From an uncultured Bacilli bacterium (GTDB lineage Bacteria; Bacillota_I; Bacilli_A; RF39; UBA660), in assembly GCA_934162195.1 (NCBI GenBank), contig CAKPHO010000005.1, forward strand, positions 6,515 through 70,514: 64,000 nt of DNA. The letters run 5' to 3'. The position numbers and the translations under genes are program-made. The notes beneath the pieces were generated by a model. That model was not told the DNA's origin. It saw only the letters and a program-made list of their open reading frames with translations, and made no database searches. Shown piece by piece: positions 7,456-54,810 of the stretch. Each line of letters starts with the position of its first letter. The stretch's first letter is position 1.

Positions 7456-8341
7456 TGATTTATTAAGGGAGTATTCAATAAAACCTCTTAGGTACACAAA
7501 AGAAGGTAGAACGGTTATTATTGATACTGATGACAAAAAATTTGTTATAAAAGAAAAGCTTAATAAAGATTTAAAAATTTATAATTATCTAGCTTCTAGA
7601 AATTTTAATTATTACCCGCGTACTATTAATAGTAGTAGTGATGATTATCAAATAATGGAATATATAGAGCAGTATGATATACCTGATGAACAAAAAATAA
7701 TTGATTTAATTGACTTGGTTGCGTTATTACATAATAAGACTACACATTTTAAAGAAATAACAGAAGATGATTATAAAGAAATATATGAAGATATTTCTAA
7801 TAACATAATTTATTTAAATAGTTATTATAACGATTTAATAAATATTATTGATACAAAGGTTTATCCTAGTCCAAGTGAGTATTTACTAGCTAGAAATATA
7901 AGTAAAATATTTGCTTCGTTAAAGTACGCTGAACATGAATTAAAAGAGTGGTATGAAATAGTAAAAAAAACTAATAAAAAAAGATTGGTTGTTCTTCACA
8001 ACAATCTTGATTTAAGTCATTTTTTAAGAAATAATAATTCTTATTTAATTAGTTGGGAAAAAGCTAAAGTGGATATGCCAATATTTGATCTTTATAAACT
8101 GTATAAAAAAGTGGGTCTTGATTTTGAATTTACTGAAATACTAAAAAGATATGAAAAAAATTATCCTCTTTTGAGAGAAGAGCAAAAACTATTATTTATT
8201 TTAATGGCATTACCTGATAAGGTTGAATTAGATAATAATGAATATGAAAATACTAAAAAGGTGGGAAAGATGGTAGATTTGGTATACAAAACAGAAATGA
8301 TTATTTCACCATATTATTCTGAAGAAGGAAAAACAAAATAA
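7442..8341 (+). CDS. CotS/aminoglycoside-phosphotransferase-family kinase-like protein
   Basis: Brenner-type motif VVLHNNLDLSHFL (HxDxxxxN-like); overall length and pattern match CotS/YtaA spore-coat kinase-like proteins. Confidence 0.5.
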   Translation: MKKINDLLREYSIKPLRYTKEGRTVIIDTDDKKFVIKEKLNKDLKIYNYLASRNFNYYPRTINSSSDDYQIMEYIEQYDIPDEQKIIDLIDLVALLHNKTTHFKEITEDDYKEIYEDISNNIIYLNSYYNDLINIIDTKVYPSPSEYLLARNISKIFASLKYAEHELKEWYEIVKKTNKKRLVVLHNNLDLSHFLRNNNSYLISWEKAKVDMPIFDLYKLYKKVGLDFEFTEILKRYEKNYPLLREEQKLLFILMALPDKVELDNNEYENTKKVGKMVDLVYKTEMIISPYYSEEGKTK

Positions 8342-8610: not shown

Positions 8611-10248
8611 ATGAAGAATAATAAGGGTTTTGCAATAAGTAGTGTTGTTTATGCAATGCTAATCCTTTTTTTAGGACTTATCTTATTAATTTTAGGAAAT
8701 TTAGCTAGCAGAAAAGCTATGTTCGATAAAGAAAAAAATGAGATACTTATGAGATTTAATAATTACGGATCTAGTAAAAAATTTGAAAATGGTGAAGTGG
8801 TATACTTTAATGTGACGTCAGGAGAATTATGTTCGTCATCAGAATATACAGAAACCCAAAGTAATACAGGGGTAAAAGAAGGGTGTATGAAGTTTTATGC
8901 TTTCAATGATGATGGAAAAAATAAAGTAAATTTAATATTAGACCATAATACCACACAATATGCGGCATGGAATTCAAGTGGAAGTAATTCAAGTGGTCCA
9001 AAAGATTTGTTAGACCAATTAAAAGCAGATACAAGATTATGGAAAGGAACAGAACCCCCATCAAACTATACGATGGATCAAACAATACAGAAAAGTAATG
9101 CAAATTATAAAATTAATTATAGTACATATAAAGCAAGATTAATAACGGCTCAAGAAATAGCTAAAATAACTGGTTATAAAGAATGGGATGAAAAAAGTAG
9201 TACTAATGTATATTATTTTGATACCAAAACATCATCACCAAGTCCTACCTGCAAAAGTGGAAACACAACTGGATGCAAATATGGATGGTTATATGACAGA
9301 ACATACACAAGTTGTATAGATTATGGATGCTTGAATAATTCAAATGTATATATGATTGGTTATTGGACCGCATCATCATATAGTAATTCATCTAGTAGTG
9401 CATGGTATGTAAATTATGGTGGCTTTGTGGTTAGTGGTGGTGTTAGTACAACAAATTATTTTGGTGTTCGTCCGGTTATAGAAGTATTAAAATCAAAATT
9501 AGTAAAAACATATGCCAATGGAGAAGTAGTATATTTTAATGTAGATAATGGAACAAAATGTACATCCAGTGAAGCAGTAAGTACAACAGGAACAAAGAGT
9601 GGATGTATGAAATTCTATGCCTTTAATGATGTTGGAAAAGATACAGTAAATTTAATCTTAGATCATAATACAACAGCAACAGTAGCATGGAATAATACAT
9701 ATAAAAATGATAGTGGTAGCATAGCCAATGCTAAAGGTCCAAAAGAATTATTAGACAAATTAAAAAGTGATACATCATCATGGAAAGGAACAATAACGCC
9801 AGCAAATTATACAATGGATCAATCAAATCAACCAAGCAATGCAAAATATACAATAGATTATAGTAGTTATAAAGCAAGATTAATAACAGCACATGAAATA
9901 GCTCAAATAACAGGAAATACGACATGGGATGAAAAGACTGCAAATAATATTTATTATTTAGACAGCAAAACAACTACTGCAAGTGCCACATGTAAAAGTG
10001 GGAATACAAGTGGATGTAGTTATGGTTGGCTATATGATAGAACATCTACTTCATGTACAACATATGGATGTTTAAATAATTCAGATAAAGAAACACACGG
10101 TTATTGGACTGCCTCTTCTCGTGCCGGCTACTATAGCCTCGCTTGGCGCGTGGGCAACGATGCTTACGTGAGCAGCGACGGCGTTTTCAATTCAAGCAGC
10201 GAAGGTGTGCGCCCAGTTATAACTGTCTTGAAATCTAGCCTTATATAA
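8611..10248 (+). CDS. Pilin-like membrane-anchored protein with two tandem DUF1566/Lcl-like modules
   Basis: N-terminus KGFAISSVVYAML is a hydrophobic helix, prepilin-like but without Glu+5. Two ~270-aa internal repeats (NGEVVYFNV...GCMKFYAFND...YKARLITA.EIA.ITG...GVRPVI.VLKS). Shares its C-terminal motif with the paralogs 18290, 26370 and 53768. Confidence 0.75.
   Translation: MKNNKGFAISSVVYAMLILFLGLILLILGNLASRKAMFDKEKNEILMRFNNYGSSKKFENGEVVYFNVTSGELCSSSEYTETQSNTGVKEGCMKFYAFNDDGKNKVNLILDHNTTQYAAWNSSGSNSSGPKDLLDQLKADTRLWKGTEPPSNYTMDQTIQKSNANYKINYSTYKARLITAQEIAKITGYKEWDEKSSTNVYYFDTKTSSPSPTCKSGNTTGCKYGWLYDRTYTSCIDYGCLNNSNVYMIGYWTASSYSNSSSSAWYVNYGGFVVSGGVSTTNYFGVRPVIEVLKSKLVKTYANGEVVYFNVDNGTKCTSSEAVSTTGTKSGCMKFYAFNDVGKDTVNLILDHNTTATVAWNNTYKNDSGSIANAKGPKELLDKLKSDTSSWKGTITPANYTMDQSNQPSNAKYTIDYSSYKARLITAHEIAQITGNTTWDEKTANNIYYLDSKTTTASATCKSGNTSGCSYGWLYDRTSTSCTTYGCLNNSDKETHGYWTASSRAGYYSLAWRVGNDAYVSSDGVFNSSSEGVRPVITVLKSSLI
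10126..10248 (+). other. GC-shifted 3' segment, candidate DGR variable repeat (VR)
   Basis: Codon usage switches abruptly to GCC/GGC/CGC/AGC/GAC/AAC in a 28% GC gene. Aligns codon-for-codon with 54640..54772 of the paralog (the only template-like partner in this window), differing mainly at codon positions 1 and 2 with C retained at position 3. Confidence 0.5.
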
Positions 10249-10258
10249 AATAAAAAGA

Positions 10259-10288
10259 TTGACATTACAAAATAAAATGATATATAAT
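10259..10288 (+). promoter_or_regulatory. Sigma-A type promoter for the valS leader (TTGACA-18-TATAAT)
   Basis: TTGACA 10259..10264, TATAAT 10283..10288. Confidence 0.55.
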
Positions 10289-10294
10289 AGTCAC

Positions 10295-10502
10295 ATAAAA
10301 ACTTTGAGCTTGAGGAGTAAACTAAAGCGTTTTAAAGAGAGTCTATGGTTGGTGGAAATAGATAAATTAATTAGTTGAAGGTAGCAAGCTAGTTGAATAT
10401 CTAAGTAAATAGGATATTACGTATATTATGCGTTAAATAATTAAGGTGTAGAAATACATAAATTAAGGTGGTACCACGTAAACTCACGTCCTTATCTGGG
10501 AT
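10295..10502 (+). promoter_or_regulatory. T-box riboswitch leader upstream of valS
   Basis: AGAGAG box; conserved T-box sequence AAGGTGGTACCACG at ~10468..10481; terminator hairpin ACTCACGTCC/GGATGTGAGT followed by a T-run immediately before the RBS. Confidence 0.7.
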
Positions 10503-10535: not shown

Positions 10536-13076
10536 ATGTTAGAAAGTAAATATAATCATTTAAGCGTTGAAGATGGAAAATATGAAAATTGGAAAGAAAA
10601 GGGATATTTTGAGTCTGGTGATTTAAGTAAGAAACCATACTGTATTGTAATTCCCCCACCAAATGTAACAGGTAAATTACATTTAGGACATGCTTGGGAT
10701 ACAACCCTTCAAGATATTATTATTCGTTATAAAAGAATGGATGGATATGATGCTCTTTGGGTTCCTGGTATGGACCATGCTGGAATAGCAACACAAGCTA
10801 AAGTTGATAAAAAATTAAAAGAGCAAGGCATAAAACCACGTGAAATGGATCGTGAAGAGTGGTTAGAACATGCATGGGCTTGGAAGAGACAATACGCAGA
10901 TAATATTCATGCACAATGGGCTAAAATGGGATTAAGTTTAGATTATACCAAAGAAAGATTTACTTTAGATGAAGGACTTAGTAATGCTGTTAAGAATGTT
11001 TTTGTAACTTTATATAATGAAGGATTAATATATAGAGGAGAAAGAATTATTAACTGGGATCCTGAAGCTATGACAGCACTTTCCAATGAAGAAGTAATAT
11101 ATAAAGATGTAGAAGGAGCATTCTATCACATTAAGTATTTTATAGAAGGAACTAATGACTATCTAGAAGTTGCAACAACTCGTCCTGAAACATTATTTGG
11201 AGATACTGGTGTTGCTGTTAATCCTAGTGATGATCGTTATAAACATTTAATAGGAAAAAAAGTCGTTCTTCCTATTGTTAATAAGTTAATACCTATAGTA
11301 GGAGATGAACATGCTGATCCAGAATTTGGTACTGGTGTTGTTAAAATAACCCCAGCTCACGATCCTAATGACTTTGAGGTAGGAAATAGACATGATCTTG
11401 AAAGAATTATTGTTATGAATCCTAATGGTACAATGAATAAGAATGCTGGTATTTACGAAGGAATGGATCGCTTTGCTTGTCGTGAGAAACTTGTAAATGA
11501 TTTAAAAGCACAAGACTTACTTATATCTATTGAACCAATTGTTCATAGTGTAGGTCATAGTGAAAGAACAGATGTAATGGTTGAACCATATCTTTCTAAA
11601 CAATGGTTTGTTAAGATGAGACCACTTGCAGATAGAGTATTAGAAAATCAAAAGAATAAAGACACAAAGGTTAATTTTGTTCCAGAAAGATTTGAAAAAA
11701 CTATGAATCACTGGATGGAGATTACTTATGACTGGTGTATTTCTCGTCAACTTTGGTGGGGACACAGGATACCTGCTTGGTACAAAGGTGAAGAAGTGTA
11801 TGTTGGAATAAATCCACCTGAAGGTGATGGTTGGATACAAGATTCGGATGTGTTAGATACTTGGTTTTCTAGTGCTTTATGGCCATTTTCAACACTTGGT
11901 TGGCCAGAAAAAACAGATTTGTTAGCTCGTTATTATCCTAATAATGTTTTAGTAACAGGATATGATATAATTCCTTTCTGGGTAAACAGAATGACTTTCC
12001 AAGGACTTCATTTTACAGAACAAAGACCATTTAAAGATTGTTTAATCCATGGACTTATTCGTGATAAACAAGGTCGTAAAATGAGTAAATCATTAGGTAA
12101 CGGTGTAGATCCTATGGATGTTATAGAAAAATATGGCTGTGATTCATTGAGATTTTTCTTAACTACATCAACTGCGCCAGGTATGGATTTGAGATATGAT
12201 GAAGAAAAAGTGGCATCAACTTGGAATTTTATCAATAAACTTTGGAATGCATCACGTTTTGTTTTAATGAATATTGAAGACTTAACTAAAGATACTTATA
12301 CATTAGATAATTTATCAATTAGTGATAAATGGATTTTAACAAAACTAGAAAATCTAATTAAAACGGTTAGAAAACATATGGATAATTATGAATTTAATGT
12401 TGTTGGTACAGAACTTTATAGTTTCATCTGGAATGATTTCTGTGATTGGTATATAGAACTTGCTAAAGGAAATTTGAATAATACAACAAAGAGTGTACTT
12501 CTTACTGTACTAACAGATGTATTAAAGATGTTGCATCCATTTATGCCATATGTAACAGAAGAAATATATTTAATGTTACCAGTACATGATAAATCAATTA
12601 TGATAAGTTCTTATCCAGTATATAATAAAGATTTAGTATTTGAAGATTCTAAAGAATTAGATAATATTATTGATTTTATTGTTAAAGTAAGAACTGCTAA
12701 ATTAGAACATAAAATACCAAAAAATTCAAAAGTATATTTTGAAGGTAATTATAAAGATTTAATTTTAAAATCTCTTCGTGTTGCTTCTGAATGTTTAATA
12801 GATAATAGTGATATGGATGGAGTGGAAGTAATTAGTTCAAATAAAAACTATAGAATTAAGTATATGTTTGATACTTCTATTGATAAAGAAAAAGAGTTAG
12901 AATCACTTCAAAAAGAAAAAGAAAACTTAGAAAATTCTATTGCTAGAAGAAAGAAACTTTTAAGTAATGAAAACTATGTAAGTAAAGCTCCAGAAAATAT
13001 TGTTAATAAAGAAAGAGAAGATTTACTAAAAGAGGAGAATGAATTAAAATTAATTTTAGAAAAAATGGGCAACTAA
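10536..13076 (+). CDS. valS: Valyl-tRNA synthetase
   Basis: HIGH motif [15 protein letters not shown]; KMSKS motif KMSKSLGN; C-terminal coiled coil; start at the RBS-supported (TAGGAGG) ATG at 10536. Confidence 0.92.
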
Positions 13077-18289: not shown

Positions 18290-19336
18290 ATGAAGAAAAA
18301 AGGCTTTACTTTAATAGAATTACTAGCGGTAATAGTAGTATTAGCTATCATTGCTCTAATAGCAACACCAATAGTAATGAGTGCAATTGAAAAATCAAAG
18401 AAAGGAGCAGCTGAGAGAAGTGCGGATAGCTACATCAAACAAGTAGAAACAGCAGTAGCAACAGAACGACTAGATGGAAATGAAGTCCAAAATGGAACAT
18501 ACGAAATAGATGGTGAAGGGAATTTAACAGGAAAAGGATTGCCAAACAATAAATTAGTTATTGACATGAAAGGAAATAAACCAATATCTGGAACAATAAC
18601 AATAAAAGATGGACAAGTAACAAATGATTCTAAGATGACAATTGGTGATTATGATGTTAAATATAATGAAGATAAAAAGAAATATGAAGCAACAAAAAGT
18701 GGTGGGACAAATCCAGATACACCATCAGTAAAAACATTATGTACTAAAAAAGAAGGAGTAGATTTAAATAATTTAGCTTCTGGAAATGAATTTACTTGTG
18801 AATTAGGAGATAATGATGCAAAAACATTTTATGTCTTAGAAACAAATGAGGATAATGTATCATTAATAATGAATGCTAATATTGATTCAAATGGAAAAGC
18901 TATAACGCCAGATAACATTCCAGATGATAAAGGATTAGTTGCATGGTCGGAAGACGGAAGCAATCATAAGGATGATGATGAATCAGCACAAGCAGTAACA
19001 GCAAAGGCATACTTATCATCAAGTACAACAAATTGGACTAAACTAAATCAATCACAAATTAAATTACCAACGGCAAGTCAGATTGCAGCAACGGCAGGGA
19101 CAACATTTGATGGTGTTAGTATGATAATGGGTTTACCAGCATGGATATATGATAACATGGATGGTACAGCAAATGCTGTATCTGGAATACCTGCTTATTG
19201 GACATCAACACCTTATAAATCTAATGATACTAATGCTTGGGGTGGTGGTGCTTACTCCAATCTAAGTAATTATAGTAGCGCAAGTACTTACGGTATACGT
19301 CCAGTAATAACTGTCTTAAAATCTGATCTTTCGTAA
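18290..19336 (+). CDS. Modular pilin-like protein: prepilin N-terminus + DUF1566/Lcl-like C-terminal module
   Basis: MKKKGFTLIELLAVIVVLAIIALIATPIVM; the first ~45 codons are nearly identical at nucleotide level to 26370 and 53768; C-terminal motif YWTSTPY...AWGGGAY...YGIRPVITVLKSDLS. Confidence 0.8.
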   Translation: MKKKGFTLIELLAVIVVLAIIALIATPIVMSAIEKSKKGAAERSADSYIKQVETAVATERLDGNEVQNGTYEIDGEGNLTGKGLPNNKLVIDMKGNKPISGTITIKDGQVTNDSKMTIGDYDVKYNEDKKKYEATKSGGTNPDTPSVKTLCTKKEGVDLNNLASGNEFTCELGDNDAKTFYVLETNEDNVSLIMNANIDSNGKAITPDNIPDDKGLVAWSEDGSNHKDDDESAQAVTAKAYLSSSTTNWTKLNQSQIKLPTASQIAATAGTTFDGVSMIMGLPAWIYDNMDGTANAVSGIPAYWTSTPYKSNDTNAWGGGAYSNLSNYSSASTYGIRPVITVLKSDLS

Positions 19337-30080: not shown

Positions 30081-31169
30081 TTGTATATGCGTAGATTAAA
30101 ACCAAAAGTTAAAATAGCGTTAATTATAGTTTCTGCTATTTTGTTGTTTGTAATATTATGTGGTTTTGTATATAGAATAGGAATAGGAAGAGTTAGTAAA
30201 GATGAAACTTTAAAAGAAATAGAGGTAACGTCAGGAAATACTTATATGTCTGTTTCTAAAACTTTGAAAGATAATCATTTAATAAAATCAGAATTTTTCT
30301 TTAAAGTTTATGTTAAGTTACATAAACCTACTTCACTTCAAGCAGGCAAATATGAATTGAGTGAAAATATGAGTGTTAAAGAAATAATTAGCGTTTTATC
30401 AAATGGTAGTACATATAATCCTAATGTTGTTTCACTTACTTTTAAAGAAGGTATTAATATGCGTAATGTTGCTAAAATAATCGCAGAGAATACTGAAAAT
30501 ACAGAAGAAGATGTTTTTGTAACACTTTCAGATACTAATTATCTAGATGAATTAATAAAAAAATACTGGTTTGTTACAGAAGCGGTAAAAAATAAAAATA
30601 TTTATTATTCACTAGAAGGTTATTTATTTCCAAACACATACAGTGTTAATAAAACGGATAGCGTAAAAAAAATATTTGAGATGATGCTTGATAATATGTC
30701 ATTAAAGTTATCACCTTATAAGGAACAAATTCAAAGTAGTACGCATAATGTTCATGAAATACTAACACTTGCATCTATTATTGAATTAGAGGCTGGAAAT
30801 AGTAATGATCGTAGTGGTGTAGCTGGAGTTTTTTATAACAGATTAAAATCTGGATGGTCATTAGGTAGTGATGTTACTACTTATTATGGTGCAAAAATAG
30901 AACTACACGAAAGAGATTTATATCAAAGAGAAATAGATGAATATAATGCTTATAATACAAGAAGTAGTCAGATGGCAGGGCGTTTACCAGTTGGGCCAAT
31001 CTGTCTTCCTAGTTTAGATTCTATTTCTGCAGCTGTTAATCCAACCATTTCTGAATATTATTATTTTGTAGCTGATAAAAATAAAAAAACATATTTTTCT
31101 AAAACATATGAAGAACATGCACAGACTGTTGCTTCATTAAAGAGTCAAGGTTTATGGTACGAATATTAG
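30081..31169 (+). CDS. mltG: Endolytic murein transglycosylase MltG (YceG family)
   Basis: N-terminal TM anchor; YceG-like domain; conserved position after yrzB. Confidence 0.75.
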   Translation: MYMRRLKPKVKIALIIVSAILLFVILCGFVYRIGIGRVSKDETLKEIEVTSGNTYMSVSKTLKDNHLIKSEFFFKVYVKLHKPTSLQAGKYELSENMSVKEIISVLSNGSTYNPNVVSLTFKEGINMRNVAKIIAENTENTEEDVFVTLSDTNYLDELIKKYWFVTEAVKNKNIYYSLEGYLFPNTYSVNKTDSVKKIFEMMLDNMSLKLSPYKEQIQSSTHNVHEILTLASIIELEAGNSNDRSGVAGVFYNRLKSGWSLGSDVTTYYGAKIELHERDLYQREIDEYNAYNTRSSQMAGRLPVGPICLPSLDSISAAVNPTISEYYYFVADKNKKTYFSKTYEEHAQTVASLKSQGLWYEY

Positions 31170-53767: not shown

Positions 53768-54772
53768 ATGAAATTAAAAAATAAACACGGATTTACACTT
53801 ATAGAATTACTAGCGGTAATAGTAGTATTAGCAATAATCGCACTAATCGCAACACCAATAGTAATGAATACAATAAAAAAATCAAAGAAAGGAGCAGCTG
53901 AGAGAAGTGCGGATAGCTACATAAAACAAGTAGAAGTAGCAGTAGCAGAAGAACGACTAAATAAAAATGAAGTACTAGAAGGAGAATATCAAATAACAAG
54001 TGATGGAAATCTATGTAGAGATAAAAGTGCAAGTTGTTCAGATGATAACAAAATAAAAATAGAAATGAGCGGAACAAAACCAACATCAGGGAAAATAAAG
54101 ATAACAAATGGAAGTGTTGATCAATCATCATCAAGTATGATAATAGGAGATTATACTGTTTCATATAATTCTACTAAGAAAACATATGAAGCAATAGAGA
54201 AAGGAAATACACCACAAGTAGAAGTATTGTGTACAGCAAAAACAGCAGCAACAAAAGGAAATGTACCACAAGGACAATTTGCCTATGGAGATGGATATAC
54301 ATGTGAATTAGGTGATAATGATGCAAAAACATTCTTTGTACTAGAAACAAATGGAGATAATGTATCATTAATCATGGATAGAAACATAGATTCAAATGGT
54401 AAAGGAACAACAAGTGGAGGAAATACAGTAGCTTGGTGTAAATCAGGAAGTAATAATACATGTGCTGCAGATAGAGCATTAGAATACTTAAAAACAAGTA
54501 CAACAGGATGGACAAAATTAACAGAATCACAAATAAGCTTACCTTCATATGATCAAATATATAAAGCTGCGGGTAATAAAACTTCGGGATTACCAACATG
54601 GCTATATGAAAATAATGTATATGGTTATTGGACATCAACCCCTCATGCGTCTAACTCTAACCGCGCTTGGCTTGTGAACTACCACGGCAACTTGAACTTC
54701 AACTTCGTCGACTTCGACGACAGCTATGGCGTTCGTCCAGTTATAACTGTCTCAAAATCACAATTAGGATAA
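53768..54772 (+). CDS. Modular pilin-like protein: prepilin N-terminus + DUF1566/Lcl-like C-terminal module with a GC-shifted 3' end
   Basis: NKHGFTLIELLAVIVVLAIIALIATPIVM; first ~55 codons nearly identical to 26370 at nucleotide level; C-terminus YWTSTPHASNSNRAWLVNYHGNLNFNFVDFDDSYGVRPVITVSKSQLG. Confidence 0.8.
   Translation: MKLKNKHGFTLIELLAVIVVLAIIALIATPIVMNTIKKSKKGAAERSADSYIKQVEVAVAEERLNKNEVLEGEYQITSDGNLCRDKSASCSDDNKIKIEMSGTKPTSGKIKITNGSVDQSSSSMIIGDYTVSYNSTKKTYEAIEKGNTPQVEVLCTAKTAATKGNVPQGQFAYGDGYTCELGDNDAKTFFVLETNGDNVSLIMDRNIDSNGKGTTSGGNTVAWCKSGSNNTCAADRALEYLKTSTTGWTKLTESQISLPSYDQIYKAAGNKTSGLPTWLYENNVYGYWTSTPHASNSNRAWLVNYHGNLNFNFVDFDDSYGVRPVITVSKSQLG
54640..54772 (+). other. GC-shifted, AAC/NNC-codon-rich 3' segment, candidate DGR variable repeat (VR)
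   Basis: 15 of 16 consecutive codons end in C (aac tac cac ggc aac ttg aac ttc aac ttc gtc gac ttc gac gac agc); composition differs sharply from the rest of the gene; aligns codon-for-codon with 10126..10248, the only template-like partner in this window. Confidence 0.5.
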
Positions 54773-54776
54773 AAGA

Positions 54777-54810
54777 AAATGGTAAGTCGATGACTTGCCA
54801 TTTTTAGTTT
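54777..54810. terminator. Bidirectional terminator/hairpin between the pilin-like gene and tetR (AAATGGTAAGTC-GAT-GACTTGCCATTT + T-run)
   Basis: 11-12 bp stem with one G.U pair, immediately 3' of the candidate VR; the T-run overlaps the tetR stop. Confidence 0.6.

Follow-up and report, generated by a model that had tools for sequence, protein, structure and literature searches.

A GC-rich gene tail resembling a retroelement-written variable region, and an apparently decayed counterpart, in a two-module gene of an uncultured gut Bacilli bacterium

The 64,000-nucleotide stretch analysed here (the window; contig CAKPHO010000005.1 of assembly GCA_934162195.1, from an uncultured Bacilli bacterium of the RF39 lineage) carries a gene, gene 1, whose two tandem modules end in homologous tails of markedly different base composition. 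The GC-rich tail of the distal module (10117–10215) is very likely a variable region (VR) written by a diversity-generating retroelement (DGR), and the AT-rich tail of the proximal module looks, from its sequence, like an old, decayed one. The features of gene 1 are listed below by window position, including a putative initiation of mutagenic homing (IMH) site, at which VRs and their template repeats (TRs) diverge.

8611..10248, plus strand: gene 1, the target gene, 545 aa in the list of open reading frames (ORFs); its hydrophobic, pilin-like N-terminus precedes a tandem pair of 243-aa modules
8788–9516 (aa 60–302), plus strand: proximal module M1, strain-invariant, 98–100% nt identity to related contigs L037 and L038
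9358..9480, plus strand: proximal tail, GYWT...RPVI, a putative fossil variable region with host-like AT-rich codons
9481..9486, plus strand: proximal flank GAA GTA (E-V) after RPVI, apparently a non-target state resembling the IMH* of TRs
9517–10245 (aa 303–545), plus strand: distal module M2, an exchangeable allelic cassette
10117..10215, plus strand: VR1, very likely a DGR variable region of 33 codons, scaffold type A
10204..10234, plus strand: putative IMH, a GC-rich GGTGTGCGCCCA plus G that is the same in TR and VR, then TTATA ACT GTC (TTGAAATC), where TR and VR diverge

The segment of gene 1 that precedes the modules comprises 59 residues and begins MKNNKGFAISSVVYAMLILF. In a global alignment, M1 and M2 share 65% amino acid identity (z = 45 versus shuffled sequence); hence, the two homologous repeats described in the initial annotation are real, although each spans 243 aa rather than ~270 aa. 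Gene 1 belongs to a family with >2300 homologs, mostly ~390-aa proteins in which a single module follows a prepilin N-terminus. The prepilin N_methyl motif is present in 35 of 67 family members, while DUF6273 is matched by 17 and Lcl_C by 10 (E ≤ 0.01). The N-terminus of gene 1 itself (KGFAISSVVY) lacks Glu5 and matches neither N_methyl nor TIGR02532. The label "DUF1566-like" previously given to its modules holds only weakly, as gene 1 shows a sub-threshold match to DUF6273 (PF19789; 18.8 bits, cut-off 23.5) and none to Lcl_C (PF07603), and the distal module alone matches neither. In the window, matches to these two domains are sub-threshold and confined to the last ~50 residues, with Lcl_C/DUF1566 found only in a paralog. 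Three scans of 2.9 million viral contigs recovered no relatives of the VR, TR or module, and a phage origin was therefore dropped.

The mean GC content of the window is 27.3%, and its most GC-rich 120-nt stretch (10095–10214, 58%) falls on the distal tail. In codon-aligned windows of 20 codons, GC content reaches 0.60 and 0.53 in the distal tail (0.60 and 0.55 at third codon positions, GC3) versus 0.35 and 0.38 in the proximal counterpart (GC3 0.15 and 0.10); outside the last ~45 codons, the two modules are equal in composition. This supports earlier claims that the distal repeat alone is GC-shifted, that the proximal repeat ends in host-like AT-rich codons, and that the proximal module serves as an internal control, its fold not requiring GC-rich codons. 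Both tails are in frame, span 41 codons from GYWT to RPVI, and have all scaffold residues in common. Across 58 distinct 41-residue tails of the family, the scaffold (G-Y-W-T, A-W, V and G-V-R-P-V-I) is invariant or nearly so, and 18 columns are hypervariable. Residues that are unreachable from AAC by adenine changes (K, E, Q, M and W) make up 2.7% of the hypervariable columns versus 19% elsewhere in the proteins. At these columns, the distal tail of gene 1 has 15 out of 18 NNC codons (p = 1.5e-14 versus 7.8% NNC in the gene) and 17 out of 18 residues reachable from AAC, while none of the 18 proximal codons is NNC.

Because TR/VR differences are allowed only at TR adenines, TRs were sought with the scaffold codons fixed and the variable codons left free. 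The scaffold of VR1 (type A) reads S-R-A-xx-S-xx-A-W-x-V-xxx-A-x-V-xxxx-V-xxxxxx-G-V-R-P. Species-representative genomes yielded one TR match, in L002 (a metagenome-assembled genome [MAG] of an uncultured Bacilli bacterium from a Hadza gut metagenome), and a metagenome scan yielded 32 further loci. In L002, a 462-aa prepilin-type homolog ends in a VR, and a non-coding AAC-rich copy, which reads SRADNSNNVWNVNYNANENNNNVDNSNNNGVRP when translated in the VR frame, lies ~240 nt downstream. TRs carrying the scaffold adjoin homologous targets in L002, L008, L010, L028 and L047, and a second TR type (type B) is present in L008. All TRs matching VR1 come from related Bacilli contigs, outside the window. 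The best fit is the L047 TR, from which VR1 differs at 20 out of 34 adenine sites and at 6 out of 65 other sites (p = 2.4e-7); relative to the L002 TR, 21 out of 35 adenines and 8 out of 64 other bases are changed (p = 1.3e-6). When polymorphism among type-A TRs is allowed for, three VR1 positions remain unexplained. Neighbouring ungapped TR/VR pairs in the lineage have 0–8 non-adenine mismatches, so the six observed for VR1 are not unusual. Both the scaffold and the adenine-specific mismatches thus match TRs of related genomes, in line with the initial proposal that the GC-rich tail is a candidate DGR variable region, and we infer that a DGR acted on the copy of gene 1 in this genome.

Several of these loci share a unit that consists of the target, a conserved spacer, a leader (TATAATTGGGATAACGC) and the TR. 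In L028, the TR is followed by an ORF resembling MutS domain I and an Avd-like ORF, with no reverse transcriptase (RT); likewise, no RT was within reach in L004–L035, and no cassette was found in the P0106 neighbourhood. Homologs of the MutS-like protein (MSL) led to complete cassettes, and L043–L046 and L047 were reached via RT homologs. Cassettes with a target, a MutS_I-like protein, bAvd and an RVT_1 RT were found in L039–L041 (in the order target, MSL, bAvd, 50-aa ORF, RT, TR), L042 (bAvd, RT, MSL), L043–L046 and L047 (target, TR, MutS-like, Avd, RT). The cassette RT has the DGR-typical motifs IGxxxSQ and YMDD, and the L047 Avd matches the NCBIfam model "diversity-generating retroelement protein Avd" (E = 2e-15). 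In the VR/TR pair of L047 itself, 18 out of 34 adenines and 0 out of 65 other positions are changed (p = 9e-11). L047 has a GC content of 27.7%, like that of the window, and derives from sample ERZ28615803, the same metagenome as L036 and L037, whose contigs are 97–99% identical to the window.

At the 3' boundary, GGTGTGCGCCCAG is identical in VR1 and in the TRs of L002 and L047, with divergence beginning right after it. TR/VR homology stops at CGCCCAG in L002, L047 and L008, which places the flank codons at the position expected of an IMH. The type-B TR of L008 ends in ATA GAA GTT, hereafter the E-type state. Of 42 distinct tails with DNA, 40 had a classifiable flank: the median NNC fraction was 0.56 for the 26 tails with a T-type flank (ACT/ACA + GTC/ATC, encoding RPVI-T-V/I) and 0.23 for the 14 with an E-type flank (GAA GT, RPVI-E-V), a difference that was significant when computed without phylogenetic correction (Mann-Whitney p = 1.3e-5; Fisher p = 1.4e-4 at a cut of 0.5). 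GC-richness tracks the two codons after RPVI, not the position at the gene end. For example, in the middle of a longer multi-module protein of L005 lies a GC-rich type-A VR (~10565–10690) that bears a T-type flank and is followed by further domains and another module; VRs of this family therefore need not be gene-terminal. Many gene-terminal E-type tails, moreover, are decayed, including both alternative alleles of gene 1 in sister strains. The mechanism had previously been tied to the extreme 3' end of the gene, a position that proves neither necessary (L005) nor sufficient (the decayed terminal tails). The accompanying emphasis on an IMH-like boundary element fares better, with a recipient-type flank, rather than the gene end, as the likely discriminator. 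On this sequence evidence, the ACT GTC flank of VR1 is probably part of a functional IMH.

The proximal tail carries the E-type flank GAA GTA. All 18 of its hypervariable residues are reachable from AAY (p = 0.022), and 16 of the 18 codons are NNT, compared with 45% NNY elsewhere in the gene (p = 1.4e-4); a former VR would be left with such residues and codons after synonymous C-to-T decay. Relative to the L002 TR, the proximal tail is changed at 23 out of 35 adenines and 34 out of 64 other bases (p = 0.16), and no TR within 14 non-adenine mismatches of it was found in any locus.

Without the tails, M1 and M2 are 68% identical, and 100 out of 102 other family modules are nearer to M2 than M1 is (the best, in a single-module prepilin protein, at 86%); 58 of the 102 are nearer to M1 than M2 is. 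L037 and L038 are 98–100% identical to the window across the upstream gene, the N-terminus and module 1, after which identity drops to 0.4–0.9 from ~9560 (L038) or ~9630 (L037) up to ~10227; beyond that point, L037 is again 100% identical over the final 20 nt of gene 1 and all downstream sequence. Whole-module replacement with differing 5' breakpoints indicates that the distal module is an allelic cassette, one that, judging from these alignments, is exchanged by recombination among family members. Of 28 core codons in the tail, 16 are NNC in the distal allele of the window, 7 in that of L037 and 6 in that of L038, and the proximal module tail has 1 out of 28 in all strains. In the related species represented by L025 (78% nt identity, syntenic from Lon onward), the ortholog of gene 1 differs in its proximal module and carries, as its distal module, one of the type found in gene 3 (see below), with a GC-rich VR followed by a spacer and a TR-like element. 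Hence, of the internal tandem duplication suggested initially, the two tandem homologous modules stand, but they are not sister copies, and M2 has been swapped between strains.

Two paralogs of gene 1 and one regulatory element in the window are also relevant here:

10295..10496, plus strand: T-box leader of valS (Rfam RF00230, 118 bits), which fills the intergenic space 3' of gene 1
18290..19336, plus strand: gene 2, prepilin-type paralog; tail not GC-rich, with 45 out of 64 non-adenine mismatches to the type-A TR
53768..54772, plus strand: gene 3, prepilin-type paralog; second GC-rich VR at 54641–54739, type B

As the T-box leader occupies the space 3' of gene 1, no spacer or TR unit is located there. 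Genes 2 and 3 both match N_methyl and TIGR02532. In GC content, the gene 3 VR ranks second within the window, and it differs from the L008 TR by 14 adenine-site changes and 4 others. Gene 2 shares the C-terminal scaffold, and its flank is T-type (RPVITVLKS), yet its tail is AT-rich; it may have decayed, may never have been targeted, or may simply be an exception to the association between flank and composition.

The explanation that we favour combines these elements, and we give it, in its full form with the IMH switch and the fossil proximal VR, a probability of roughly 75%. Gene 1 would encode a modular surface protein of a large gut-Bacilli family, most members of which combine a type IV prepilin signal with one or more 243-aa modules; the protein is presumably displayed on a pilus-like fibre. 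An RT, together with Avd and a MutS-like accessory protein, would copy an AAC-rich TR into cDNA with misincorporation opposite template adenines, and the cDNA would replace the VR up to the 3' boundary (GGTGTGCGCCCAG then TTATA ACT GTC). The outcome would be NNC codons, hence high GC, at ~18 positions between fixed scaffold residues. The proximal module would once have carried a VR too, but with a flank that is now GAA GTA, a state also seen at a TR end, it would no longer be a recipient, and its codons would then have drifted from NNC to NNT with the amino acids unchanged. The TR and RT are presumably encoded elsewhere in this genome.

Several observations weigh against this explanation. In the 64-kb window, blastn of the tail and a degenerate {X or A} scan (≤30 mismatches) for a TR returned only the tail itself, and a six-frame YxDD scan for an RT gave only a GreA-like context. 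L047 and the window have no orthologous sequence in common, so the L047 cassette is not assignable to the same genome. The six non-adenine mismatches to the best TR indicate that VR1 is no fresh copy of that template, and there is no sign of ongoing diversification: gene 1 has an exact copy on a 71.5-kb MAG contig, the identical 545-aa protein occurs on three contigs, the gene 3 VR is identical in L036 (a strain 99% identical), and strains differ at gene 1 by whole-module replacement, not by VR-restricted change. The flank association, uncorrected for phylogeny, has exceptions as well (the E-type L024 at 0.52, and several T-type tails below 0.35). No GC-rich inverted repeat was found after the putative IMH within 10216–10295; this feature is not strictly defining for a DGR VR, as it occurs downstream in only 34% of DGRs (PMC5758913). 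Finally, the AlphaFold2 model of the distal module is of moderate quality (pLDDT 76, pTM 0.79) and had no PDB structure match below E = 1, a PDB profile search was empty, and the best matches in a viral structure library were weak (phage "DUF6273" proteins, E = 4e-3, TM 0.45). Neither structure nor profile thus confirmed the C-type-lectin fold expected of DGR targets. Overall, it is doubtful, at somewhat under even odds, that VR1 is currently being diversified in this genome.

A serious competitor, although we would not bet on it, is that a DGR wrote VR1 elsewhere, in a different gene or lineage, and that VR1 arrived by homologous recombination when the distal module was swapped in and is now static and slowly decaying in this genome. 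Strains that are 99% identical differ in the whole distal module, not only in the VR, with 5' breakpoints that vary, the other alleles at the locus are E-type and partly decayed (6–7 of 28 codons NNC), the gene 3 VR is static between strains, and 64 kb contain neither a TR nor an RT. Five of the six non-adenine mismatches to the L047 TR are G/C/T-to-A/T changes, as AT-biased drift predicts, with only T63C in the opposite direction. Nonetheless, the T-type flank of VR1 is intact and NNC codons persist at 15 out of 18 positions, its non-adenine mismatches are within the range of adjacent TR/VR pairs, remote targets are normal for non-phage DGRs (PMC5758913), and a full cassette is present in the sample of a sister strain.

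The remaining alternatives are much less probable. A recent tandem duplication within the gene, followed by DGR action on only the 3'-most copy because homing needs the gene end, would account for two homologous modules with a GC shift in the last and would suit a family whose VRs are mostly gene-terminal. We nevertheless consider it improbable, given that M1 and M2 both have nearer relatives than one another (100 of 102 other modules in the case of M2), that L005 has an internal GC-rich VR and gene-terminal E-type tails are decayed, and that the fossil signature implies that the proximal tail, too, was once diversified. Very improbable is an RT-independent antigenic variation by pilin-style gene conversion from silent 3' AAC-rich cassettes. 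Partial copies of 3' ends do occur downstream of targets without a nearby RT (L008, L025 and L027), and whole modules are exchanged, but conversion cannot yield differences that are adenine-specific, as they are between donor and recipient (0 out of 65 other positions in L047), and these units are linked to Avd, the MutS-like protein and an RT that bears the IGxxxSQ and YMDD motifs. Insertion of unrelated foreign DNA or a mobile-element fragment, which the initial annotation had named as the finding that would overturn its reading, might be suspected from the sharp local GC peak. It is refuted by codon-level homology to the proximal tail: the distal tail is in frame, of the same length, shares every scaffold residue, and has homologs among TRs and VRs throughout the family. 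Neither direct repeats nor a hairpin were found flanking it, and viral contigs gave no matches.

As a DGR target with a DUF1566/DUF6273-like C-terminus and a DGR of the Avd/MSL/RT type, gene 1 would belong to a kind that is already known. DUF1566 is reportedly the commonest Pfam domain among DGR targets, and pilin-like targets have been mentioned in passing (PMC6642488, PMC11661182); accessory sets of MSL and Avd, DUF1566-type targets, remote targets and occasional internal VRs are likewise on record (PMC5758913). The closest parallels are DUF1566/CLec2 targets such as Legionella LtdA, served by DGRs with Avd and MSL (Wu et al. 2018, PMC5758913), which share the C-terminal AAC-based VR, adenine-specific TR/VR differences, a GC-rich 3' segment common to TR and VR, remote targets, the combination of Avd, MSL and RT (here in the lineage's cassettes), and weak DUF1566/Lcl_C and DUF6273 matches limited to the VR-bearing C-terminal ~50 residues. 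In contrast to those systems, the host here is an AT-rich (27% GC) uncultured gut Bacilli bacterium, most targets start with a type IV prepilin N-terminus in place of a lipoprotein signal, no PDB fold match was obtained for the 243-aa module, gene 1 has two modules in tandem, one of them apparently decayed, and TR units with a conserved spacer and leader lie directly 3' of targets, some without an RT within 10 kb. The Mtd/Brt DGR of Bordetella phage BPP-1 follows the same logic of target, TR, Avd and RT, with an IMH at the VR end versus an IMH* at the TR end and mutagenesis with a fixed limit on the 3' side but none on the 5' side. It differs in that the present system is cellular, lacks a GC-rich hairpin after the putative IMH, has an additional MutS-like gene, and includes TRs of several types and numerous dispersed targets. 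Bacteroides DGRs that act on type V pilus adhesins (bioRxiv 10.1101/2024.11.15.621889) similarly involve a gut commensal diversifying the tip or adhesin of pilus-associated proteins, although the proteins considered here are type IV or Com-like prepilins of a Gram-positive lineage, with a target fold family and a phylum that are different.

The known DGR mechanism is unchanged by these findings. A single gene with a live-looking and a fossil VR on the same scaffold would provide a natural example of a DGR target that was born, used and abandoned, as well as an internal calibration of NNC-to-NNT decay in an AT-rich genome. The two codons after RPVI offer a candidate IMH determinant of only six bases, and DGR-diversified modules appear to travel between strains also as recombination cassettes. 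If the favoured explanation holds, the range of DGR-diversified pilus-associated proteins would widen to include type IV prepilin-like ones from uncultured Gram-positive bacteria of the gut.

A broader and more tentative proposition, which we regard as rather unlikely as a whole, is that the lineage runs a distributed DGR network in which one RT/Avd/MutS-like cassette serves several TR types and satellite TRs, recipients are set by a two-codon switch, and modules become fossilized or swapped. Satellite TR units may sit directly 3' of pilin-like targets far from the RT, and ACT GTC versus GAA GT just after the VR may decide recipient status. Stand-alone TR units (spacer, leader and TR) were observed directly 3' of targets in L008 (8387–8560) and L027 (5765–5950), where the genes that follow are housekeeping genes (polA and rlmN) and MSL, Avd and RT are all absent from the 4–10 kb of contig on each side. 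If functional, such units would need an RT in trans. In L025, the TR-like element that follows the conserved leader (7633–7815) is a hybrid: its 5' third is AAC-rich and TR-like, and its 3' two-thirds are diversified, with CCAGTTATAACTGTC, a flank of the recipient type, at the end. It has the look of a TR on which, once an IMH had been gained, overwriting proceeded from the 3' end; this copy may be a TR turned target.

Some cassettes appear to be decaying. L028 (999–1995) has no RT but retains the TR and MSL along with an Avd reduced to 87 aa, and in L039–L041 (L039, 10949–11960) the RT is truncated to 294 aa versus ~400 and the TR lacks 9 nt and ends in the mutated sequence TGCTCAG. The leader UUGGGAUAAYGCUG is kept 30–45 nt upstream of every TR (L002, L010, L028, L047, L043 and L039) and predicted pairing between it and the TR 3' end CGGUGUGCGCCCAG would enclose the entire TR within a single helix; we do not claim this helix, for which there are conservation and G-C to G-U changes only, with no compensatory pairs. 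The spacer between VR and TR had no match in Rfam. The DNA just upstream of the leader (TTATAATTGGG) is complementary to the recipient flank CCCAGTTATAA.

Within the window, at least seven genes (starting at 1972, 13809, 18290, 26370, 37481, 41711 and 53768) share near-identical prepilin-type N-termini (KGFTLIELLAVIVVLAIIALIATPIV), and such a density of pilin-like genes, scattered among housekeeping genes, is unusual. Another ORF of the window, at 30081–31166, was not on record. The last of these, gene 3, is followed at 54773–54810 by a terminator-like hairpin (ggtaagtcgatgacttgcc) that resembles the first spacer hairpin in L008 and L047 (ggtaagtcgaacttgttcggcttg) and may be the remnant of a lost spacer-TR unit.

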